DNA of 64,000 nt, taken from contig CAWAGQ010000004.1 in assembly GCA_963781585.1 (NCBI GenBank), positions 608,001 to 672,000 of the forward strand. The letters run 5' to 3'. Source of the DNA: an uncultured Gemmatimonadaceae bacterium (lineage in GTDB: Bacteria; Gemmatimonadota; Gemmatimonadetes; Gemmatimonadales; Gemmatimonadaceae). Position numbers and translations under genes: made by a program. The notes beneath the pieces were generated by a model that was not told the origin of the DNA, ran no database searches, and saw only the letters and a program-made list of their open reading frames with translations. Positions 48,622-64,000 of the stretch are shown here, piece after piece. Within the stretch, counting starts at the first letter, position 1, and each line of letters begins with the position of its first letter.

Positions 48622-49494
48622 ATGTTTCCCCAACATCTGGCGCGCGCATCGCTCGCCATTCTCTCGCTGGCTGCGCTCGCGGCCTGTGCCGACGGTCCGA
48701 CCGGCACATCGACGAGTCGGGTTCTGGTCCAAACTCCAGCCGCGGCCATCCAAACGCCGGGCGGCGGCGAGCTCTGGGTGTGCAAGGCAGGCAATACGGC
48801 CGGCACGTTCCACTTCGCCATCTCGTACTCGCACAAGTCGGGTCCCGGATCAGCGGTCCCGTCGAACCTCGCGTTGACGTCAACAGATGTCGATGTCGGC
48901 AGCTGCGTCGAGGTGGCGAGTTCTCCCGTGACCGGCTCAGACGTCTACCTCGCGTCGATCGTGGAGACGGGGCAGACGAACTGGGCCCTGTCCGCGGTCA
49001 CCGCTATCAAGGGAAATGGGTCCGACGTCACGGCCTCGCTCACCATCAATCTCGGGACCCTCACGGCGAGCGGCGCCCGACTGGGCAACGACCGCGGCAC
49101 GACGGTTGTCTTCACCAACACGTTCACCCCGCCGACCGTAACGCCGGAAGGCTGCTCGCCGGGCTACTACAAGAAGCACCTCCAGCCGGGCAACGACCAA
49201 CTCCTGGGCGACATCTTTTCCAGCACGCCGGGCGCACTGGCAGGCTACACGCTCCAGGACGCGCTGCACTTCGAAGGTGGTCCAACCCTGACCGACAAGG
49301 AAAAGATCCTGCTCCGGCAGGCGGCGGCCGGATACTTCAACATCGGGTGGCTCGGCGCCCCGCCGTACCCGCTGTCGCTCACGGACCTGCAGAACCTCGT
49401 CAATGACGCGCTGGACACTGGCAATGCGACGACGATACTGAACGTGAAGGACCAGATCGCCGGCGACAACAATCTGGAAGGGCCGAAGTGCTGA
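48622..49494 (+). CDS. Hypothetical lipoprotein (Thr/Ser-rich, GCSPGYYK motif)
   Basis: GGGAGG RBS, lipobox LAAC, typical codon usage. Confidence 0.8.
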   Translation: MFPQHLARASLAILSLAALAACADGPTGTSTSRVLVQTPAAAIQTPGGGELWVCKAGNTAGTFHFAISYSHKSGPGSAVPSNLALTSTDVDVGSCVEVASSPVTGSDVYLASIVETGQTNWALSAVTAIKGNGSDVTASLTINLGTLTASGARLGNDRGTTVVFTNTFTPPTVTPEGCSPGYYKKHLQPGNDQLLGDIFSSTPGALAGYTLQDALHFEGGPTLTDKEKILLRQAAAGYFNIGWLGAPPYPLSLTDLQNLVNDALDTGNATTILNVKDQIAGDNNLEGPKC

Positions 49495-49573: not shown

Positions 49574-49733
49574 TGCTTTGCTACGCACCCGCGTCTGGCG
49601 ACCTGATGAAGGCGTGGTCCATCGCACCGGCAAGACTTCTGGCACCGCGGCATAAGCGACGATCATTCCCCACCGGCGGCCCCTTGGGTGCGCCGATCGT
49701 CCGCCTGCGCGCCTAACGCTCGGTCGAAATGAG

Positions 49734-49789
49734 TGCCCAGGACGAGACTCGAACTCGTAAGGGCCGAAGCCCGGCGGATTTTGAGTCCG
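49734..49789 (-). tRNA. 3' fragment (56 nt) of tRNA-Leu(CAA); duplicated att core of the integrated element, not an intact tRNA
   Basis: Minus strand CGGA-CTCAAAA-TCCG anticodon arm, long variable arm, ACGAG-TTCGAGT-CTCGT T arm, CCTGGGC-A acceptor; D arm and 5' acceptor strand are absent. Confidence 0.88.
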
Positions 49790-49901
49790 AACAACGACGG
49801 GTGCGGTGTTTGCCGGTGTTCGCCGATGTTGTTGTGTGAGCGACCGTTAGGCACTTCGGTTCATGTGCTGCGGGAAGCATGTTTGACGATGTTTTGCGGT
49901 G

Positions 49902-49934
49902 GTTCTAGCACAGTTCTAGCACAGTTCTAGCACA
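49902..49934 (+). repeat. 3 x 11-bp tandem repeat GTTCTAGCACA, likely integrase arm-type binding sites
   Basis: Perfect triplication about 110 bp inside the att core. Confidence 0.75.
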
Positions 49935-49951
49935 ATCAACCAGGAAGGCCA

Positions 49952-50977
49952 GTGCACACGACACCTGATCTGGAGCTGTTGCGCTCTGTTGGAAGCGGCC
50001 AAGTCTGGGCCATCGACCCCGATCGGTTGGAGGCCGTGCTCGGCCTTGCCACGCTCCGCGGTGCGCAGGCCGGACCGGAGCGCCGAGGCGTGTTGGCCCC
50101 GCGCGCTCCGCTCGTTACGGGCGGCGTCGCCGTGCTGCCGATGCATGGCATCCTCGTGCATCGCGCGTCGCCGCTCGCGAACCCGCTCGGTGCGGTGACA
50201 TCCACCGAAGCGGTGGGCCGGTCGTTGGACGACCTGCTCTCCCACGGGACGGAGACCATTGTGCTGGAGGTGGACTCGCCCGGCGGGGAATACGACGGCG
50301 TTCCAGAACTTGCGGACAAGGTATTTCACGCGCGGAGCCGGGCGCGCATCATCGCCGTGGCGGATAGCCTGGCGACGGCTGGCGCGTACGTCGTGGCTGC
50401 GGCGGCTGGTGAACTGGTGGTGAGTCCGTCGGCGGTCGTGGGCGGGCTCGGCGTCTTCACCATGCACGATGACTTCTCGGCGATGTTCGAACGGGTCGGG
50501 CTCACACGGACGGTGGTGCGGGCGCCAGCCTCCAAGGCCGAAGGCGCGGGGAATCTCCCGCTCAGCGCGGCGGCCCGCACGGCGCTCCGGGCGACCGTGC
50601 AGACGGTGTACGCGACATTAGTGGAGTCCGTGGCGCGCGGCCGGGCCGTCACGCCCGCAAGGGTTCGCGACGGGTTCGGCCAGGGGCGTACGGTCATGTC
50701 AGAGCGCGCCGTGCGAGAGGGCATGGCCGATCGCGTGGCCACGCTCGAAAGCGTCGTGCGCGCGTATCAGCGGAGCGCGCCGCCTCTTGGCCGGAACGCC
50801 TTCCGGGCGCCCGCGGAGTCCCCGCCGTTAGATGCTGATGCGCCTGGCGCATGGATCCGCTGCGATGCCGACGACGCCCCTGATCCATTTGCGGTAGAGT
50901 GGGATCGGTTCTATCGGCCGCGCGACGGAGGGAACGCCGCGGTACTTCGTCGGCGGCTCGAGTTGGAAACCGACTGA
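49952..50977 (+). CDS. S49 (SppA/prohead-protease-like) peptidase homologue, nucleophile Ser apparently replaced
   Basis: VAVLPMHG, IVLEVDSPGG, ELADKV, FGQGR, GMADRVAT; LATAGAY in place of AASAAY and GGLGV in place of GSIGV. Confidence 0.85.
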   Translation: MHTTPDLELLRSVGSGQVWAIDPDRLEAVLGLATLRGAQAGPERRGVLAPRAPLVTGGVAVLPMHGILVHRASPLANPLGAVTSTEAVGRSLDDLLSHGTETIVLEVDSPGGEYDGVPELADKVFHARSRARIIAVADSLATAGAYVVAAAAGELVVSPSAVVGGLGVFTMHDDFSAMFERVGLTRTVVRAPASKAEGAGNLPLSAAARTALRATVQTVYATLVESVARGRAVTPARVRDGFGQGRTVMSERAVREGMADRVATLESVVRAYQRSAPPLGRNAFRAPAESPPLDADAPGAWIRCDADDAPDPFAVEWDRFYRPRDGGNAAVLRRRLELETD

Positions 50978-51046
50978 TATGCTCTATGCCGCGTCGTCCG
51001 AACAAGCCGCCTGACGAAGCTTCGCGATGGTTAGGGCACAGAAAGG

Positions 51047-51136
51047 GCACAGTCATCCAGGAGGGCCATGTGCACATGACACGCGATTTCGAGCTGTTGC
51101 GCTGCGTCGGGACGCGGCCAAGCCTGGGCGATCGAC
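51047..51136 (+). repeat. Degenerate copy of 49930-50017 (island-end repeats and S49 5' end)
   Basis: Aligns base by base; encodes VHMTRDFELLRCVG versus MHTTPDLELLRSVG; preceded by two 11-bp ...GGGCACA units (51030-51051). Confidence 0.8.
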
Positions 51137-51256
51137 ACCACGCCGTTGCTAGAGGCGCACGGCGGCGCGCTGTCGGCTGACATGCTGCCCGAGTCTAGCC
51201 TTACCACTGCTGACGGGCTATTGTCTCGTCCCTCCCTGAGCCCGAGGAATGAGAGC

Positions 51257-51697
51257 TTGAGAATCGCGCTAGCCGCCGTATGTGACTACGCAATAATGGA
51301 CCAAAGCGGCAAACTGAGCCTCCTTGGGTTATTCGATGAGTTGCGAGCCGTCTCCTTCCCGGTGGCGCATCCGCGGATGTTTGTATGTCTCCGGATCCAG
51401 TGCGAGCCGATTGAGGCTAACACTCAGCACAGGTTGCAGATACGCTTGCAGGACGCTGATGGGAACCTTGTCTTGCCGGAGGTATCCACGCAATTCACAG
51501 TGCCGGATCGGCGTGCCGATCAGCCACATATGGCCGTCCAACTTGTACTAGAGATGGGTGGCGTTCGCTTCCCGCGGGCCGGCGAGTACTCTTTCGAAGT
51601 GGCCATCGATGGCTCGCATGTTCAGACCCTTGCGATTCGTGTCCAGCAGTTCACCCCAGGAGGTCCCCAAGGCGGCCAGCGTCCGAAATTGCGCTAG
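51257..51697 (+). CDS. DUF6941-like protein
   Basis: AAVCDYA..GKLSLLGLFD..FPVAHP..FPRAGEYSFEVAIDG pattern; TTG start chosen. Confidence 0.65.
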   Translation: MRIALAAVCDYAIMDQSGKLSLLGLFDELRAVSFPVAHPRMFVCLRIQCEPIEANTQHRLQIRLQDADGNLVLPEVSTQFTVPDRRADQPHMAVQLVLEMGGVRFPRAGEYSFEVAIDGSHVQTLAIRVQQFTPGGPQGGQRPKLR

Positions 51698-51700
51698 ACG

Positions 51701-52009
51701 ATGGCGCGCCACGTGCCGGGCAGGGCTTGGAAACTTTATGCGCGGATGTTGAACAGTCGTGCGGGTTGGGGACAGCGCGACTTCCACAAGCTGTACAAGG
51801 GCTTCGGATTCGAGTGTCGGGAAGGACGCGATCGGGTCTATTTCCACCCCGATCATCGCGGTGTGATTCCGATAGCGATGGTTGCAAGACATAATGAACT
51901 ATCAAAGGCATATACCGACGACGCCATCGAGCGCGTCGGCCGGCTCATCGCCTTAGAGCAATTGACGCAGGAGAAAATACCAAATGAGTACGATGATGTT
52001 CACGGATGA
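51701..52009 (+). CDS. HicA-like toxin (divergent)
   Basis: FGFECREG.DRVYFHP..VARHNELSKAY; upstream of a HicB-like gene. Confidence 0.6.
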   Translation: MARHVPGRAWKLYARMLNSRAGWGQRDFHKLYKGFGFECREGRDRVYFHPDHRGVIPIAMVARHNELSKAYTDDAIERVGRLIALEQLTQEKIPNEYDDVHG

Positions 52010-52322
52010 CTCGATCACCGCCGTTCAGGTGAACGTTGACAATGTTGGTCGGAAGGTGTGGTGGGAGGAGACCCTTCCGAGTGGCGCGCAAGTCTGGGTG
52101 GCGCGTGACCTCGATCTACCTGGCTGCATCGTTCAGGAGGGCTCTGCGCCCGCAGCACTTGCGGCCCTAGAAGATGCGAGGCTGCACTATCGTGCTGTGA
52201 TGGCTGAAATTGCCCAACCCTCAGACGCTCCCGACGCGTTGCTTCCAACTAGCACCAGCGAGACATCGAGTGCCATACCGACAAAACTCTTCAGCTATCG
52301 GGATTTGCAGCCAGTAGGCTAA
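51984..52322 (+). CDS. HicB-like antitoxin
   Basis: WVARDLDLPGCIVQEGSAPAALAALEDA resembles the HicB partial RNase-H fold. Confidence 0.65.
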   Translation: MSTMMFTDDSITAVQVNVDNVGRKVWWEETLPSGAQVWVARDLDLPGCIVQEGSAPAALAALEDARLHYRAVMAEIAQPSDAPDALLPTSTSETSSAIPTKLFSYRDLQPVG

Positions 52323-52715
52323 ATCGTTAGGGAGCTCGGTGACAGCTAGCGCGGATTTGATCGCTCGACCACCGCGCGCAGGCTCTCAGTGAGTTCCCGG
52401 AGCTGCTCGAGCGCTTTGGCCGTTTTCCCGGTTTTGCGACATAGCGCCACCAGACGAGCCGCGTGAGCTCGTCGAGGGCTGCGCGGTCCGGGGCCGCGCT
52501 CACGAGGCGACCGAGCGCCGCGGCGCGGGGCGGTCGTGAGCTTCAATTGTCTCGGACCAGGCGCGCGCGTTTCAGCGTGATCAGGAGGACGAGCGCGGTG
52601 CTGTCCTCCCCTTCGGGATAGTAGTGGTCGAGATCGGCCCTGAGGCGCGCGAGCGCCGCCGGATCATCGGCGAGCCGGATGCGGCGCAGGTAAAGGCCGC
52701 CAGCTCGAGCGCGGG

Positions 52716-53559: not shown

Positions 53560-54291
53560 TTACGCGGTCACCGATTCGGTGTCGTGAGACCGCCGCTCTG
53601 ATGGAGGGTCGGCTTGCCAGCGTTCCTGCCATGCGCGGAGCATCTCCTCTAGGAACGCCGTCGCCCGGTGCCGAAATACCGAGTTGAAAGACGCTTCAAG
53701 CTCAATTTGTTGTTCTTGCTGCGTGAGCGTTAGCCCAACGTCCCTCTGCTCGAGACGCCGCACGATTTTTCTGCGATTCTCTCGCACCTCGCCGCGAGCA
53801 TGGATGAGGAGATTTCGAACTTCTCCGTACTCCAATAGCTCGTTCCACTGCGGCTCGGCTGGAGACGCGAGCGCGGCTACCTTGGTGAGGAATGTTCTCG
53901 CTTGGCGGATGCCAGTTCCACGCAGGTCCGTTCGCGCGACGCGCTGCGGCGCAAAGTAATGAACCAGGTCGCAAGTTCGAATCAGGCCGTGCTCCAACGT
54001 GCCGTAGGCCATGAGGAAGAGCGCGGCACGCTGGATCTGCGGGAAAGCCCAATCTGCCATCCCGTGTTCCAGTAAGAGCTCCGTGTATTCGCTCGCCGAC
54101 CGCTTCGTGCCCTCCACGAGGGCAGCCCGCGCCGTAGCAGAAGCGTTGTTCATGGCGACTTCCGACAGCTCGTGCAACCGCTGGACGTGGTACAGGCGCT
54201 CAAGCGTGGTCGATATTGCGAGCACGCCGTAGTCGCGAACGAGTTGAAAAGGTGCGCGCGATTTAGCAGGCGGTCGCTGCTCGGGGGTCAT
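53560..54291 (-). CDS. HEPN-domain protein (RxxxxH), candidate RNase/abortive-infection effector
   Basis: Helical protein with AYGTLEHGL, DLRGTGI and VRNLLIHARG. Confidence 0.65.
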   Translation of the reverse strand: MTPEQRPPAKSRAPFQLVRDYGVLAISTTLERLYHVQRLHELSEVAMNNASATARAALVEGTKRSASEYTELLLEHGMADWAFPQIQRAALFLMAYGTLEHGLIRTCDLVHYFAPQRVARTDLRGTGIRQARTFLTKVAALASPAEPQWNELLEYGEVRNLLIHARGEVRENRRKIVRRLEQRDVGLTLTQQEQQIELEASFNSVFRHRATAFLEEMLRAWQERWQADPPSERRSHDTESVTA

Positions 54292-54512
54292 CTCCCCCGC
54301 TTCCGCTTCCCATCGGTGGCGAGCAGTTCGCCGGGCTGAACGCCCAGGGCCGCGGCGAGGCGTTCCAGCACGTCGAGATCGATCCGGGACGTCGCGCCGC
54401 GCTCAATCTGAGAGATGGTGGCCTGGCGGACGCCGGCGAGCTCCGCGAGCGCCTCCTGCGTGAGGCCGCGCGCCGCGCGAAGATCCCGAAGCCGGAACCG
54501 GACCGGTGACAT
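54288..54512 (-). CDS. XRE-family HTH transcriptional regulator
   Basis: LRDLRAARGLTQEALAELAGVRQATISQIERG; ATGA-coupled to the HEPN gene. Confidence 0.9.
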   Translation of the reverse strand: MSPVRFRLRDLRAARGLTQEALAELAGVRQATISQIERGATSRIDLDVLERLAAALGVQPGELLATDGKRKRGR

Positions 54513-54519
54513 GCCGGCC

Positions 54520-54569
54520 AATATACGCTGAGGCGGATATTGACGGCAATACGCCCTGGCGTATATCCT
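54520..54569. promoter_or_regulatory. Divergent promoter with two related palindromic operators
   Basis: AATATACGC-TGAG-GCGGATATT (54520-54541) and ATACGCC-CT-GGCGTAT (54549-54564), overlapping TTGACG-N18-TATCCT. Confidence 0.7.
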
Positions 54570-55129: not shown

Positions 55130-56002
55130 ATGACCTCACTGAAGTACTCGAAGCCGGAACGTATCTGGTTGAAGGACCATCCTGATTTGGATGAGCGCTG
55201 GCTTCAGGACCGGATCGGTGAGGATCCGGCACTCCTCGGCCTTGGAGACTTGGTCCTGAAGGATCGAGAGCGACCGCAGCCTCGAGCTGGGCGGCTCGAC
55301 CTGCTACTTCAAGATGCGGAGACCAACAAGCGCTACGAGGTCGAGGTGCAGCTCGGCAAGACCGATGAGGCGCACATCATCCGCACCATCGAGTACTGGG
55401 ACATCGAGCGGAAACGATATCCGCAATATGACCACACGGCGGTGATCGTCGCCGAGGATATTACCGGCCGTTTCCTTAACGTCATCAGCCTATTCAACGG
55501 TTCCATTCCCCTTGTCGCCATTCAGATGAGCGCGGTCCGGCTCGGCGATTCTGTATCGTTGATCTGTTCGAAGGTTCTCGACGAGATGCGCCTTGGCCTC
55601 GTGGACGAGGACGAGGAAGTCCAGGCAGCAGCGGACCGGTCGTATTGGGAGGCTCGAGCAAGCAAACACACCCTGGCGATGGCGGACGAAATGCTCGAAG
55701 TGGTTCGTGCTTTCGATCCGCAGCTCGAGCTCAAGTACAACAAGTTCTATATCGGCCTGGCCAAGGGTGGTCAGCCAAACAACTTTGTCATCTTCCGTCC
55801 GAAGAAGGACTGGCTTCGGCTTGAAGTGCGCCTCGACCGCTCAGACGAGACGCAAGCACAGCTCGATGGATCGGGTCTCGACGTCATGGACTACGATTCC
55901 CGATGGGGGCGGTACAGAATCCGCCTCGCCAAGGGCGACACTACGAAGCACAGGGATTTCCTGGCGGCGCTCATGACGAAGGCATTCGCAGGGACCGCAT
56001 AA
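55130..56002 (+). CDS. Cassette 1: PD-(D/E)xK-like (NucS-like) nuclease domain plus DUF5655-like C-terminus
   Basis: ERWLQD..GRLDLLLQD..YEVEVQLG..HIIRTIEY; the stop TAA overlaps attC R''. Confidence 0.75.
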   Translation: MTSLKYSKPERIWLKDHPDLDERWLQDRIGEDPALLGLGDLVLKDRERPQPRAGRLDLLLQDAETNKRYEVEVQLGKTDEAHIIRTIEYWDIERKRYPQYDHTAVIVAEDITGRFLNVISLFNGSIPLVAIQMSAVRLGDSVSLICSKVLDEMRLGLVDEDEEVQAAADRSYWEARASKHTLAMADEMLEVVRAFDPQLELKYNKFYIGLAKGGQPNNFVIFRPKKDWLRLEVRLDRSDETQAQLDGSGLDVMDYDSRWGRYRIRLAKGDTTKHRDFLAALMTKAFAGTA

Positions 56003-57040: not shown

Positions 57041-57241
57041 GCACCCGCCGAGCAGGAAGCGCGGGAACGTGAAAAGACGAGCAATGCGAGTAGGGCACTA
57101 ATGCCCGACTCGGACAAACGCCGCGCCCGCGACGATGCGGCGAAGCTGGTTGGCGTCTCCCCGCGCTACGTGCAGGACGCGAAGGCGATCAGTCGGCGGG
57201 CGCCGGGCGGAGACGACCTGGTCTCAGGCGCATCCGCATAA
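57041..57241 (+). pseudogene. Fragment of a ParB/Spo0J-type HTH protein
   Basis: ARDDAAKLVGVSPRYVQDAKAI with no credible start, directly after a terminator. Confidence 0.45.
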
Positions 57242-58079
57242 TTGCGTAATTTTGTCCCTTGTGCTCCTGAAACTTAGGTTGGGTCGGCAGCCGTTGGAGT
57301 CGCCGCTCGAGTTGCTCATGCTGCCGTGGGGTAACGAGCACCCACTGGTTAAGTGGCCACGCCTTCCATGCGCTGCTCCCCCATTGTGGCATTTCCCCGC
57401 GGCTCACCTTTTCGGCCGCCACGCTCCCGATGAAATCGGCGAGCGTGCGAAATGGTCTCGCATCTTTGCGCCGCTGCTGATTACGCCGCGGCGGCCGCGC
57501 GAAGGACGGCAACGGCGCCAACTCCAGATGATGAGCGGTCAAGGCGCACAGATCCCCAGCGATCGCCGCATACGGTGATCGAGATTCGGTCATCAGCCGA
57601 TGAAGTTCCCGTAGCTGCTCGTACAGGGCTCCGTCCCGGCTTTTGAGCACCTCAACTAACCGCTCATGGCTCCCGCGGTACTTTCGGACGATTTCCGCCA
57701 ACAGATCGTCGGGCCACGGAACAGAGTAGTCGGCCAACGCGCGCACAATAGGACTTTGTCCGCGGCTCAATGTCTGGACAATGAAATCACGAAGGGTCGC
57801 TGGCAAGGATCGGCGGTCCGCTGCGGCGCTGAGCGACTCAGGGCCGTTCCCCAAGAGTAGCCACGTCGGGGAGCGGTGATACTCCGTGCAGATCCGAAGA
57901 ATCGTGCCTACATCAGGGGTCGCCGGGTCGCGCTTTCGCAACCACTTCCCGACCGTTTCGCTGGTCGAGCCGATGGCTTCCGCAAACGCCGCCGCGCCGC
58001 CGGCGTCCTCGACCACCAAATGCAACCGGTGGCTGATGGCACGGGAATCTGACGGCTCCGGTTTCGATCGACCCAACAA
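57189..58079 (-). CDS. CI/Stl-like repressor (N-terminal XRE HTH)
   Basis: AFAEAIGSTSETVGKWL...SPTWLLLGNGP; divergent from the replication operon. Confidence 0.7.
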   Translation of the reverse strand: MLGRSKPEPSDSRAISHRLHLVVEDAGGAAAFAEAIGSTSETVGKWLRKRDPATPDVGTILRICTEYHRSPTWLLLGNGPESLSAAADRRSLPATLRDFIVQTLSRGQSPIVRALADYSVPWPDDLLAEIVRKYRGSHERLVEVLKSRDGALYEQLRELHRLMTESRSPYAAIAGDLCALTAHHLELAPLPSFARPPRRNQQRRKDARPFRTLADFIGSVAAEKVSRGEMPQWGSSAWKAWPLNQWVLVTPRQHEQLERRLQRLPTQPKFQEHKGQNYAIMRMRLRPGRLRPAPAD

Positions 58080-59144: not shown

Positions 59145-60452
59145 GTGCAATCTCGCGTCGATGCGTACGAGCCGCAGAATGACGAAGAGCTCGAGGACGT
59201 CCTCGGGTCGCCAGAGGGGAACGGCACGAAACCGCATCCGGCGAATGAGCCCGGACTCCCTTCCTTCGTGCGACTGTCCGAGGTGGCGCCTGACATCGCG
59301 ATCGAGTGGGACGCCGAGGACCTCTTTGTGCACGGAGAACCTGCGGTTCTGGCCGGGAGAGGGGCCACGTACAAGACGTCGACGATCCTCGCGATGGCCG
59401 GCGCCGTCGCGACGGGACATCGCGTCTTCGGGCGGTTCCATGTGCCCACGCCTGGTCCGTTCTGCTACGTCTCAGGCGAGGATCCGCCCGAGGTGATCCG
59501 CAACCGCCTCGAGGCCATTTGCCACGGCCACGGCTATAACGTGGCCGACGCGTTCGAGAACGTGCACGTGCTCGCGCTCTCCGGCATCGACCTCGCGGAA
59601 GAACGTTGGCGTCGACACGTCAGGGATGAAGTGCGCGCCATCGGCGCGCGGATGCTCGTGCTGGATCCGCTCGCCGAAGTGGACAGCGGCGAGGAGAACA
59701 ACAACGACGACCGCCGGCGCCTCGTACGCGCGATCCGGTGGTTCGGCGCGGAGACCGACGCGACGGTCCTGGTGGCGCACCACTTCCGCAAGAGCGCCGA
59801 GGGCGGAGACAAAGGTGATCTGATCCGGGGCGGTAATGCGCTCCCAAACGCGTCCCGGCAGACGTACGCCTTGGAACGCCTCGACGACGGGAGCGTGACC
59901 GTGGAGTGCGTGAAGTTCTCGCGGGCTGCGCGGCGACCACCCTTCGTGCTGCGGCCGATCATAGAGACCAAACCGGGCAACGAAGCGGTCTGGCTGAGTG
60001 CCCGGTTTGAATACGCCACGGCCTCCGAGGCCAAGTTCGACCGGGCGGAGGAATTCGTGCTCGAGCGCCTCACGCTCGGGGTCCGATTGAGCACCTCAGA
60101 CCTGAAGCTCGAGGCCAAGGGGACCGGTGTTTCCGGTGCCGATATTGCCCGGGCGCTGCGGGTGCTCGAGATGCGCCGGCTCATCAGTTTCGAGGCCGGG
60201 GAGAAGAATGCGAAGCTCTGGGGTCTGGTTGCCGGGCAAGCTGGGCAACCAGAGAATGTGCTTGCCCGGCAAACAGGCAGCTTGCCGGGCAACCAGAATA
60301 AGGCCGGTTCTGCTTGCCTTGCCCCCTTTAGGGGGGCAAGCAGAAACCGGCCGCCTAACGAGCACCGGCAACCAGACCCGCCCCCGAACCACGGCGAGGC
60401 CTGGGAGCCGCCTCTCGACGATTCGCAGGCAGCGATGTGGGGCGGCGCATGA
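59145..60452 (+). CDS. AAA_25/RepA-type replicative helicase
   Basis: Walker A AGRGATYKTS, YVSGED, Walker B LVLDPL, EENNN, VAHHFRK, IRGGNAL. Confidence 0.85.
   Translation: MQSRVDAYEPQNDEELEDVLGSPEGNGTKPHPANEPGLPSFVRLSEVAPDIAIEWDAEDLFVHGEPAVLAGRGATYKTSTILAMAGAVATGHRVFGRFHVPTPGPFCYVSGEDPPEVIRNRLEAICHGHGYNVADAFENVHVLALSGIDLAEERWRRHVRDEVRAIGARMLVLDPLAEVDSGEENNNDDRRRLVRAIRWFGAETDATVLVAHHFRKSAEGGDKGDLIRGGNALPNASRQTYALERLDDGSVTVECVKFSRAARRPPFVLRPIIETKPGNEAVWLSARFEYATASEAKFDRAEEFVLERLTLGVRLSTSDLKLEAKGTGVSGADIARALRVLEMRRLISFEAGEKNAKLWGLVAGQAGQPENVLARQTGSLPGNQNKAGSACLAPFRGASRNRPPNEHRQPDPPPNHGEAWEPPLDDSQAAMWGGA
60227..60350. repeat. Putative replication origin (iteron-like palindromes)
   Basis: TTGCC(G/C)GGCAA at 60229, 60262 and 60282, then hairpin CTTGCCCCC-TTTA-GGGGGGCAAG. 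Confidence 0.65.
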
Positions 60453-61973: not shown

Positions 61974-62168
61974 GGCCGCGCGTCCGGCAGGCCGGAGTCG
62001 GCCTTCGCAGCGCATGGCGCGGGAACTCGCAGACCCACCCCGGGGTCGGTCCGATCTCTGTGATCGGCCGCGTTAGGGACCGTGGCCAGCCCTCAGCGCG
62101 CCCTGGGCAGGTTTTGCGAGCCGAAAGTGCCCGGCAGGACCTTCGCAGAACGAGCGGAGGCTGAAACG

Positions 62169-62657
62169 ATGCGTGGTCCGCCGAAGAAACCGACCGCCGT
62201 CAAGCTGATCGAGGGCACCTTCCGCCGGGATCGTGCGCCGAGGCGCGAGCCGCGTCCGGTGCCAGGCGTTCCCCGGCGCCCCCGCTGGCTCGATGCCCGC
62301 GGCGCGACGAAATGGCGACAGCTCGTGGCCATCCTCGGTCCAATGCACGTGGTGACCGTGGCCGACGGCGATGCGCTAGCGCTGGCTGCGGAGGCGTTCT
62401 CGCGATTCCTGGCGGCCAGGGATGCGGTCCGACAGTTCGGCACGGTCTACAGTTCGGCGACCCCGGCCGGGGGCACGATCGTCCGGCCCCGTCCGGAGTG
62501 CGCGATGGCGACGAGCACGTGGCGGGACTATCTGCGCGCGCTGCAGGAGTTCGGCCTCACGCCGGCGGCACGCGCCCGGGTGGAAGCGCGAGACGACGGC
62601 GGGAGCGAGACCGACCGGTTCCTGTTCGATGAGTCACGCCGCCGGCGTCGAGCGTAG
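62169..62657 (+). CDS. Phage terminase small subunit, P27 family
   Basis: GGAGG RBS; RGPPKKPTAVKLIEG, PRWLD..KWRQL, EFGLTPAARARV. Confidence 0.9.
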   Translation: MRGPPKKPTAVKLIEGTFRRDRAPRREPRPVPGVPRRPRWLDARGATKWRQLVAILGPMHVVTVADGDALALAAEAFSRFLAARDAVRQFGTVYSSATPAGGTIVRPRPECAMATSTWRDYLRALQEFGLTPAARARVEARDDGGSETDRFLFDESRRRRRA

Positions 62658-62666
62658 GAGAGCCGA

Positions 62667-62807
62667 ATGACAACATCACAGCAGCATGGCGATGAGCTGA
62701 TGCTCTTGCGGGCCAGGTACGACGCGCTGGCCGCCGAGGCGGTGCGGCAGGCGATTCTCTCCGGCGGCTCGCTCAAGATCGATGTGGAGGGCATCACGGA
62801 GCCGTGA
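62667..62807 (+). CDS. Hypothetical 46-aa protein
   Basis: AGGAG RBS; GTGA overlap with the next gene. Confidence 0.5.
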   Translation: MTTSQQHGDELMLLRARYDALAAEAVRQAILSGGSLKIDVEGITEP

Positions 62808-63142
62808 CGTCTCCTCTTGCGGGCCAACTCGAGGCGCTCATCGAGCGCGCGACGGCAGAGGAATTGCCGACGCTCGCGGGAGCGTTGGCGACCGCGCTCG
62901 CGAGCGTGCTGGCGCGCGTATCGACGCCGGCCGCAGGGCCGACCCTTTCCCGGCCGCACACAACCTCTGACGGGCTCCTGGACGTGCAGCAGGCGGCCGA
63001 GCGGCTCGGGGTAGCGCCGACGTGGCTCTACCGACATGCCAGCAAGCTCCCCTTCACCCGGAAACTCGGGCACAAGACGCTCCGCTTTGACGCCCGCGGC
63101 CTCGATCGCTGGGCCGCGACGCGCGCCACGTCGCATGCTTGA
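62804..63142 (+). CDS. Excisionase-like HTH_17 protein
   Basis: LLDVQQAAERLGVAPTWLYR..LPFTRKLG..LRFD..LDRW. Confidence 0.82.
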   Translation: MTSPLAGQLEALIERATAEELPTLAGALATALASVLARVSTPAAGPTLSRPHTTSDGLLDVQQAAERLGVAPTWLYRHASKLPFTRKLGHKTLRFDARGLDRWAATRATSHA

Positions 63143-63177: not shown

Positions 63178-63423
63178 ATGAACGCCGTCACTCGCACCAT
63201 GCAGCGGATCCTCGCTGACTCGCCGGTGAGCCTTCGGGAGATTGCCCGGCGGTGCGGGGTGTCGCATGTGCAGCTCGCACGGATCGTGAATGGTGAACGC
63301 AACGCGACGCCGGCCGTGGCCGCCGCAGTGGCGACGGCGCTGGAGACACTCGGGGCCGACTGTACCGCGCGTGCGAAGCGGGTGCGGCGTTCCTTGGCCA
63401 CATCAGGCAAGGGGGAGCGATGA
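63178..63423 (+). CDS. XRE-family HTH protein
   Basis: SLREIARRCGVSHVQLARIVNGER; ATGA-coupled to the integrase. Confidence 0.8.
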   Translation: MNAVTRTMQRILADSPVSLREIARRCGVSHVQLARIVNGERNATPAVAAAVATALETLGADCTARAKRVRRSLATSGKGER

Positions 63424-64000
63424 GAGACGCGACGAAGAAGCGCGCCGAGCGTGGCGCCGGAGGGCTCTACCAGCGCGGCGGTCTGTGGTGGATTCGCTAT
63501 AGCTATCGGGGAAAGCAACTCCGCGAGTCGAGCGGCTCCGACGTGCGGAACGACGCCGTGAAGCTCTTGCGGCGGCGTCTGGCCGAGATGGGATCCGGAA
63601 AGCTCATCGGTCCGGACGCCGAGCGCACGTCGTTCGACGACCTGGCCGACATGGTGATTGCTGACTATCGGCTCAATGGCCGGCGCTCGACTCGACGGGC
63701 CACCGAGGCGCTTGCGCGGCTTCGCGGCTTCTTTGCGTTCGCGCGCGTGCCTGACGTGACGAGCGATCGCATCGCCCGCTACATCACACAACGGCAAGAG
63801 GACAGCGCCGCGGCCGCGACGATCCGATACGAGCTGTCGATGCTCAAGCGCGCCTTCACGCTCGGCATGCGCGCCGGCAAGGCCGCGACGCGCCCCTACA
63901 TCCCCACGGTGGCCGTCGATAACGCTCGCAAGGGATTCTTTGAGCCCGCAGACTTCGAGGCCGTCGAGACGCACTTGCCGGCGCCGCTGCAGCCGCTCAT
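63420..64000 (+). CDS. Tyrosine recombinase/phage integrase, N-terminal part (truncated by window)
   Basis: Arm-binding domain GLYQRGGLWWIRYSYRGKQLRESS, SAM-like core (AATIRYELSMLKRAF), NARKGFFE; not in the ORF track because there is no stop. Confidence 0.88.
   Translation, partial: MRDATKKRAERGAGGLYQRGGLWWIRYSYRGKQLRESSGSDVRNDAVKLLRRRLAEMGSGKLIGPDAERTSFDDLADMVIADYRLNGRRSTRRATEALARLRGFFAFARVPDVTSDRIARYITQRQEDSAAAATIRYELSMLKRAFTLGMRAGKAATRPYIPTVAVDNARKGFFEPADFEAVETHLPAPLQPL

Follow-up and report, generated by a model that had tools for sequence, protein, structure and literature searches.

A head-maturation-protease homologue without its catalytic serines in a PICI-like island of an uncultured Gemmatimonadaceae bacterium: a possible pseudo-protease acting on helper head assembly

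In a window of 64,000 nucleotides from an uncultured Gemmatimonadaceae bacterium (assembly GCA_963781585.1, contig CAWAGQ010000004.1, forward-strand positions 608,001 to 672,000; the coordinates below are those of this window), a 14,930-bp island resembling the phage-inducible chromosomal islands (PICIs) carries as its first gene a homologue of the S49 head maturation proteases of tailed phages, here called P0001. Judged from its sequence, P0001 can probably no longer cut, as the nucleophile Ser is replaced by Ala and the Ser that positions the Lys by Gly. The reading we prefer, with a probability of roughly 0.45, is that P0001 is a pseudo-protease maintained by selection that acts on the head assembly of a helper phage; the 'decoy' role given to it in a preliminary description of this DNA is treated here as a hypothesis. 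The host genome (G000) is 93.5% complete with 7.2% contamination, and the 18 kb that follow the end of the window were also examined. The gene and its decisive parts are these:

49952..50977, + strand: S49 head-maturation-protease homologue P0001, 341 amino acids, no catalytic Ser (Pfam, PHROGs, PDB sequence match, model)
50378..50380, + strand: codon of Ala143, in the column of the Ser nucleophile and first residue of the modelled helix 143-150 (alignments, model)
50444..50446, + strand: codon of Gly165, in the column of the GSIGV Ser (alignments)
50534..50536, + strand: codon of Lys195, in the column of the general-base Lys, kept (alignments)
50930..50974, + strand: C-terminal helix and tail ending in AAVLRRRLELETD, the equivalent of the RRRELDL tail of active homologues (alignment, model)

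The preliminary description of the reading frame proved correct in every detail. The gene is intact, with a GTG start five bases after a strong Shine-Dalgarno sequence, AGGAAGG, and 341 open codons, and its product shows the S49 motifs DSPGG (residues 108-112) and PASKAEG with its Lys (192-198), together with LATAGAY (140-146) and GGLGV (164-168). P0001 matches the Pfam family Peptidase_S49 (PF01343) with an E value of 5.4e-21 (75.6 bits, cut-off 24.9) and PHROG_53, 'head maturation protease', with 3.1e-55 over residues 10-276; the score against the NCBIfam model SppA_dom (95.7) lies under the cut-off of 155.45. Compared with the sequences of solved structures in the PDB, it matches SppA of B. 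subtilis (2.3e-11) and of E. coli (~2e-11). The AlphaFold2 model, made from an alignment of 27 sequences, has a mean predicted local distance difference test score (pLDDT) of 76.6, with 153 residues at 90 or above and a confident core at about residues 55-275 in which the score exceeds 90. Foldseek returned as best matches to this model the SppA chains 4kwb and 3rst (E 1e-18; target-normalised TM-scores of 0.81-0.86), and model and search together give P0001 an SppA/ClpP-like fold.

Placement in PHROG_53 rests on the profile match and on the segments specific to the phage proteins, which are present at both ends. The N-terminal WAIxP motif is kept as 'VWAIDPDRL', in which Trp19 is conserved in at least 90% of the aligned homologues, and the C-terminal RRRLEL tail is kept as 'LRRRLELETD', modelled as a helix at residues 327-340. 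By analogy with the protease of phage HK97, we infer that these terminal segments would target P0001 to procapsids; a C-terminal encapsidation signal of the HK97 protease was reportedly described by Duda et al. in 2013.

In the pairwise alignment with B. subtilis SppA, 'SMAASGGY' stands opposite 'SLATAGAY' of P0001, so that the nucleophile Ser corresponds to Ala143, and Lys195 of P0001 stands opposite an Ala of the crystal chains, 52 residues downstream of the nucleophile. We take these chains to be a Lys-to-Ala mutant of an enzyme with the dyad S147/K199, with which the 52-residue spacing agrees. In E. coli SppA, Lys195 falls on the Lys of 'GTYKS' in the N-terminal domain. The use of a Ser-Lys dyad by S49 enzymes is stated in PMC9360617. 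The nucleophile column holds Ser in 217 of the 218 homologues of the first set and, after addition of a second S49 subgroup, in 274 of 276 (the exceptions are P0064 and P0228). Among genome loci aligned by tblastn the count was 91 of 94, the remainder being L027 (Ala), L036 (Gly) and L073 (a one-residue slip); all 80 viral-contig loci have Ser, one of the scan patterns having contained Ser and thus favoured it, and so do all 80 metagenome loci found by tblastn. As for the other two positions, the GSIGV column is Ser in 210/218 homologues and Gly in P0001, and the Lys column, in which P0001 keeps the residue, is K in 214/218. Both serines are therefore missing, as had been claimed beforehand, with Ala143 and Gly165 in columns where Ser is the rule. 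The preliminary description had also named a finding that would speak against it, namely that the Thr of LATAG serves as nucleophile. The register disfavours this: both the pairwise and the multiple alignments put Thr142 one position before the nucleophile column, on its N-terminal side, and in the model it closes the strand 132-142, position 143 opening the helix 143-150.

The losses of conserved residues in P0001 are concentrated in the catalytic motifs. We took the 69 columns with a conservation of 80% or more across 217 Ser-bearing homologues and counted as motif columns those at most 4 residues away from position 143, 165 or 195. P0001 has lost the conserved residue in 7 of the 15 motif columns (A142T, S143A, A144G, W147V, S165G, I166L and G192P), compared with 7 among the 54 other columns (one-sided Fisher test, p=0.0086). 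Of these residues, G144 is probably ancestral, since the active homologue P0004 reads LAASGAYW. The losses outside the motifs are ordinary, 58 of 217 active homologues having seven or more, and the nearest active relatives of P0001 show 0-1 losses in the motifs and 2-7 outside them (1 and 7 in P0004, the nearest of them). With thresholds of 80% or 85%, the contrast persists whichever window from 2 to 6 residues is taken (p 0.004-0.024). Neutral drift over the whole gene would spread the losses evenly, and their clustering thus speaks against plain decay; on the alignment, motif-focused erosion fits a retained non-catalytic role better.

Further proteins without the nucleophile were found at some distance from P0001. 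A homologue search with the L027 protein gave 103 additional proteins, in which the nucleophile column is Ser in 95, Ala in seven (P0279, P0280, P0281, P0282, P0284, P0285 and P0291) and Cys in one (P0309). In a FastTree phylogeny, drawn with no support values displayed, the Ala and Cys rows share one long-branched clade with the Ser-bearing rows P0283, P0286, P0290 and P0319, so that 8 of its 12 members are Ser-less and the nucleophile is labile in it; the clade, which consists of metagenomic homologues, is separate from P0001. Its proteins are intact, the nine aligned members (the seven Ala rows, the Cys row and P0283) having 283-331 amino acids, P0290 250 and P0319 266. All nine aligned members have an N-terminal PWAIxPETL and a C-terminal LRRELELL, the latter occurring three times in P0285. 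The Lys is kept in 12 of 12, and the GSIG Ser in all except P0291 and P0309. Over 21 pairs, identity among the Ala rows ranges within 54-73% and averages 59%, from which it follows that an S49 protein devoid of its nucleophile can persist through about 40% divergence. P0279, encoded at L027:7998-8903, is the sole member with a known context. A metagenome scan for further contexts returned 80 loci, all Ser-bearing and none on the clade's contigs; a motif scan of viral contigs gave four chance matches, none of them S49, and 400 genomes of the order to which L027 belongs held just two other matches at a cut-off of 1e-40, with 50% and 35% identity.

The element that carries P0001 is delimited by exact 56-bp repeats at 49734-49789 and 64608-64663, which place the island at 49734-64663. 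Its principal features, apart from those given above, are as follows:

49734..49789, no strand: attL, a 56-bp direct repeat identical to the 3' part of tRNA-Leu(CAA), with its partner at 64608-64663, past the window end
54288..54521, - strand: Cro/CI-type regulator with a helix-turn-helix (HTH) domain of the HTH_3 family (Pfam, PHROGs)
57189..58079, - strand: repressor-like HTH protein of 296 amino acids (weak matches to YdaS and PHROG repressors)
59145..60452, + strand: AAA_25 replication protein, RepA / primase-helicase-type (Pfam, PHROGs)
62082..62657, + strand: small terminase subunit terS, P27 family, Terminase_4 (Pfam, PHROGs, NCBIfam)
62804..63142, + strand: HTH_17 protein, excisionase / AlpA-like (family match)
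63178..63423, + strand: small HTH_3 protein (family match)
63420..64520, + strand: tyrosine integrase, 366 amino acids, followed by attR and tRNA-Leu (the window ends at 64000)
64608-64691, - strand: tRNA-Leu(CAA), containing the second 56-bp repeat (attR), beyond the window end

The S49-like gene lies at the end of the island away from the integrase. The AAA_25 protein matches the helicase part of PHROG primase/helicase profiles, and Pfam and PHROGs detected no primase domain in it. Genes for the large terminase subunit (TerL), portal and capsid were found in the island neither by Pfam and PHROGs nor by custom hidden Markov models (HMMs) built from 23 capsid, 20 TerL and 5 portal genes that adjoin S49 genes elsewhere; the positive controls L019, L236 and L257 scored from 1e-28 to 1e-185 with these models. 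P0001 is thus outside any recognisable head module, no portal, TerL or major capsid gene standing beside it, and the earlier statement that the element has terS and no capsid gene holds as far as Pfam, PHROGs and the custom HMMs reach. In the whole genome, at 93.5% completeness, the capsid families PF05065 and PF03864 gave no match, nor was there another S49 gene or a second copy of terS. With an integrase and its att sites, AlpA-type and repressor-type HTH proteins, terS, a length of 14,930 bp and no capsid, portal or TerL gene found, the island has the anatomy of a PICI-like satellite. It also looks active, to judge from the perfect att repeats, the intact integrase, the excisionase-like HTH protein, the replication protein and terS.

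In the excised circle, just the excisionase gene, the small HTH gene, the integrase gene and attP, about 2.2 kb in all, would lie between terS and the S49-like gene; related phages such as L236 have TerL and portal at this place. The middle of the island, lower in G+C, holds an open reading frame (ORF) of 290 codons at 55130-56002 that weakly matches DUF5655 (1.8e-4) and the PADLOC candidate-defence models PDC-S11 and PDC-S18 (~5e-5) and may be defence cargo. Another 290-codon ORF, at 48622-49494, has a high third-position G+C and lies just outside attL; no match was found for it in Pfam, PHROGs, NCBIfam or PADLOC.

In regards to a plausible helper, relatives of the island TerS with 31-40% identity are encoded in 7 of 240 S49 loci (L025, L030, L202, L218, L222, L231 and L236), and in L236 the gene order is terS, TerL, portal, S49 and capsid. 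The occurrence of TerS relatives in S49-bearing phage loci points to a phage with terS of the P27 family, TerL, portal, S49 and HK97-type capsid genes as the likely helper. Two sets of candidate relatives were discarded: P0064, at first a possible sister of P0001, falls in a different S49 subgroup, and the small Ralstonia 'phage' records H1 and H6, considered as satellites with S49, keep the Ser and are unannotated fragments.

The usual surroundings of S49 genes were taken from the Ser-bearing genome loci with full flanks, of which 25 of 34 have an HK97-type capsid gene adjoining the S49 gene or fused to it. Capsid, TerL or portal genes adjoin S49 in 30 of these 34, as against none of three Ser-less loci; by hand calculation the chance of this contrast is 4/7770, or about 5e-4, a value that treats related loci as independent, which they are not. 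The flank scan covered the one to three largest flanking ORFs and used 66 of the 87 listed; third ORFs were dropped, as were the ORFs of L027 and L036, already covered by an earlier scan, and L062 was settled by a separate scan. Loss of the Ser accompanies loss of the head module, which is compatible with both decay and re-use. Of the other Ser-less copies with a context, L027 comes from an Acidobacteriota genome and has in its surroundings an integrase gene, an HTH_17 gene and apparent tape-measure fragments, and the S49 gene of L036, from Paraburkholderia lacunae, stands alone amid host genes.

If P0001 is indeed a pseudo-protease acting on a helper, we propose the following course of events. 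A 14.9-kb PICI-like island in tRNA-Leu would keep a folded, full-length, non-cutting S49 protein, and a helper with the gene order described above would infect the cell that bears it. P0001 could then enter the helper procapsid or mix into the helper S49 ring, by means of its WAIxP segment, its ring-forming core and its RRRLEL tail. It might act there as a poison subunit, Ser-less and with the Lys alone, still offering that Lys in the manner of the N-terminal domain of E. coli SppA. It might otherwise act as a protease-resistant, scaffold-like core protein unable to remove itself. In either case head maturation would be disturbed or redirected, in favour of the packaging of the 15-kb island through its own TerS. 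The active sites of S49 rings are built across subunits, which makes dominant-negative poisoning mechanistically plausible.

The region upstream of the S49-like gene bears on how the gene is expressed and on its relation to its neighbour. The features concerned are these:

49902..49934, + strand: GTTCTAGCACA in three perfect copies in tandem, lying 18 bp ahead of the start of the S49-like gene (sequence)
51018..51139, + strand: diverged duplicate of the 5' region of the S49-like gene, with GCACA repeats, ribosome-binding site and first 23 codons (sequence comparison)
51070..51180, + strand: leader ORF of 36 codons made from the duplicate (read from sequence)
51146..51697, + strand: DUF6941 gene, an extra copy of a near-universal gene of the family (Pfam, survey of family genomes)

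The GTTCTAGCACA repeats are possibly an operator or an arm site of the integrase. The pattern GCACA-N3-7-GCACA occurs five times in the window (0.93 expected), three of the five matches being at these repeats or in the duplicate. The duplicate is 81% identical to the original over 70 bp (51070-51139), with a one-base indel near 51113, and the TGA of the leader ORF (51178-51180) ends one nucleotide ahead of an in-frame ATG of DUF6941 (51182). From its layout it looks like a recycled cassette for expression and translational coupling, and the S49-like and DUF6941 genes probably share control signals; a search of 49700-52500 found no sigma-70-like promoter and no terminator. DUF6941 is present in 189 of 201 Gemmatimonadaceae genomes, a tally that takes in the unpublished G007, G033, G034 and G133, and the host has a second copy at G000:C3:214024-214392. 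No DUF6941 gene adjoins S49 among more than 80 S49 loci, and we rejected it as a head gene, given that almost every genome of the family has it on the chromosome and S49 loci lack it. PADLOC gave no match for either the S49-like or the DUF6941 protein.

Several observations weigh against a selected role in helper head assembly. The host genome has revealed neither a helper nor a further S49 gene, and searches for capsid genes in it were negative too. P0001 is a singleton, and no conservation is seen in its own lineage: its closest homologue is 47% identical, in a search of 5.8 billion clusters as well as in an exhaustive search of 1.84 billion representatives, and among 400 genomes of the bacterial family the best one reaches 33%. 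Distant relatives of the island replication protein occur in three of these 400 genomes (G081, G120 and G146), and none of the three is among the family's S49 matches, which indicates that the S49-like gene is not a core or fixed gene of such islands. The column test fails at the 90% threshold (p 0.13-0.23), where few columns are left, and its windows were picked after the data had been seen, for which reason we take it as moderate evidence. Moreover, neither L027 (3/15 in the motifs versus 6/54 elsewhere) nor L036 (1/15 versus 9/54) shows erosion specific to the motifs. In a tree of 89 rows, from a quick IQ-TREE run as opposed to a full careful search, the five Ser-less rows P0001, P0064, P0228, L027 and L036 require five changes and do not cluster, and the end branch of P0001 is 0.97 long against a median of 0.37. 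Finally, L027 and L036, the two other Ser-less copies with a context, look like remnants and have no terS. The recurrence of Ser-less homologues in terS-bearing islands, which had been put forward as a check, was accordingly not borne out.

These same observations would suit an inert relic, that is, a leftover of a head module that was inactivated in the island, where it has no cognate capsid to process, and that still awaits deletion. The isolated position of P0001 on a long end branch, sporadic and scattered loss of the Ser, and Ser-less copies such as L027 and L036 in degraded or orphan contexts are what such decay might leave; the adjoining partial duplicate, diverged and with an indel, is a sign of local rearrangement, and in a genome of 66% G+C reading frames stay open longer by chance. 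Nevertheless, uniform decay would not produce losses concentrated in the catalytic motifs with normal conservation elsewhere, 341 codons have gone without frameshift or stop despite six or seven replacements in the active-site motifs, the rest of the compact island is intact, its att repeats being perfect, and the ability of S49 proteins to persist without the Ser is shown by the Ala/Cys clade. We consider a relic unlikely on balance, while giving it serious weight. That P0001 is still a protease, with Thr142 or another Ser acting as nucleophile together with Lys195, strikes us as very improbable. Lys195 and DSPGG are kept, and Thr142, in a column where just 2 of 218 homologues have Thr, directly precedes the nucleophile position; however, this Thr is out of register by one, being the last residue of the strand before the helix begins at 143, the second Ser (at G165) and the Gly ahead of the Lys motif (G192P) are lost too, and close to half of the motif columns (7/15) are altered.

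A non-catalytic role unconnected with capsids also has to be weighed, in which P0001 would be a sensor or bait for phage proteins in a defence or abortive-infection pair with DUF6941, or a chaperone-like factor directed at the host. Satellites often carry accessory cargo at the end away from the integrase, which is where the S49-like gene lies, and the gene has a duplicated 5' control region in common with DUF6941, which is itself of host type and not a head gene (189/201 family genomes; 0 of 80+ S49 loci). However, PADLOC recognises neither protein and, judged by PADLOC alone, no known defence system includes S49, and the segments that P0001 keeps beyond its core are those common to genuine head proteases. 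We regard such a role as quite unlikely, and a pseudo-protease that interferes with helper heads is still our favoured reading of P0001.

S49 genes also occur in other small elements, which we describe for their own sake. L049:7749-12313, L255:7552-13459 and L273:7183-12018 have in common an S49 gene (with the Ser), a helix-rich protein of about 290 amino acids, one of about 800 and two smaller conserved genes; L255 and L273 have an integrase as well. The custom HMMs found no capsid, TerL or portal gene in the three elements, and a Pfam scan of L049 gave nothing for its 282- and 820-amino-acid proteins; the protein of about 290 amino acids could be an unrecognised head protein. In L040:8010-11848, L285:9881-13944 and L032:7866-11398, all compact and bearing an integrase or a replication protein, the S49 gene is followed by a gene for a protein of 627-777 amino acids, which is tape-measure-like in L032 and L040. 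The S49 domain of L040 is fused to an S78 prohead-protease domain, a separate S78-like ORF adjoins S49 in L285, and the integrase of L285 is 42% identical to that of the island. S49 genes with or without the Ser thus recur, in several phyla, in compact integrase-bearing elements that have no recognisable capsid gene, and such elements point to unexplored phage-dependent elements outside the classic PICI hosts. A wider proposal, tentative and in our estimate somewhat unlikely, is that Ser-less homologues of S49 head proteases form a recurrent, selected class in satellites and integrative elements, which would co-assemble with the helper ring or procapsid core through retained terminal targeting segments and block or resize heads as Lys-only poison subunits or uncleavable scaffolds; P0001 and the Ala/Cys clade, with the capsid-less and integrase-bearing L027, would be examples.

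Among known systems, the closest to P0001 are the S49 head proteases of tailed phages (PHROG_53, lambda gpC type), with which it shares homology, the SppA-like fold, WAIxP, the Lys motif and the RRxLxL tail; the likeness to the lambda gpC type rests on the PHROG_53 profile. Unlike these proteases, P0001 lacks the nucleophile Ser and the GSIG Ser and is not encoded between portal and capsid. A Ser-less, Lys-bearing S49 domain is known from E. coli SppA (protease IV; PDB 3bf0/3bez), whose N-terminal domain has Gln in the nucleophile column and donates its Lys to the Ser of the other domain. In E. coli the Ser-bearing partner is in the same chain, whereas the genome of P0001 has no other S49 gene, so that any Ser-bearing partner would have to be phage-derived. 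The island itself resembles the PICIs in its integrase, AlpA-like HTH protein, regulators, replication protein, terS, length of about 15 kb, location in a tRNA gene and absence of any structural gene found, and differs from the classic ones in that no primase domain was detected and in its host, which is of uncultured type, G+C-rich and outside the classic PICI hosts.

The satellite proteins CpmB, Rcm and P4 Sid mimic or compete with a head-assembly protein of the helper, and the same logic is proposed here for P0001. They are small helical or external scaffolds whereas P0001 is a dead enzyme, no sequence relationship being expected, and binding and size redirection, which we infer for P0001, have been shown for them. 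CpmB of SaPI1 competes with the scaffold for its site on the capsid protein (PMC5644958), Rcm of SaPIpT1028 parallels CpmB (PMC12409344), and Sid is treated in PMC7552001. Small terS-type elements with a head-protease-like gene and no full head module, like our island, are described in passages of two further papers, namely the Vibrio satellite plasmid TG93, with capsid protein E, a head maturation protease and a small terminase (PMC13230959), and the module-2 VEIMEs, with 'periplasmic serine proteases' (PMC9618062). These are compared by description: TG93 has a capsid gene and the island none, and those passages make no mention of a missing Ser for TG93 or the VEIMEs. A search of the full-text literature, which leaves most subscription journals uncovered, found no satellite described as having a head protease without catalytic activity. 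The known means by which satellites take over helper capsids are small scaffold mimics such as CpmB and Rcm, external cages such as Sid, and capsid homologues. A dead head-maturation protease would, if our reading is true, be an undescribed satellite strategy and a new molecular route to helper capsids, and P0001 a rare case of a microbial pseudoenzyme kept for its assembly interfaces.

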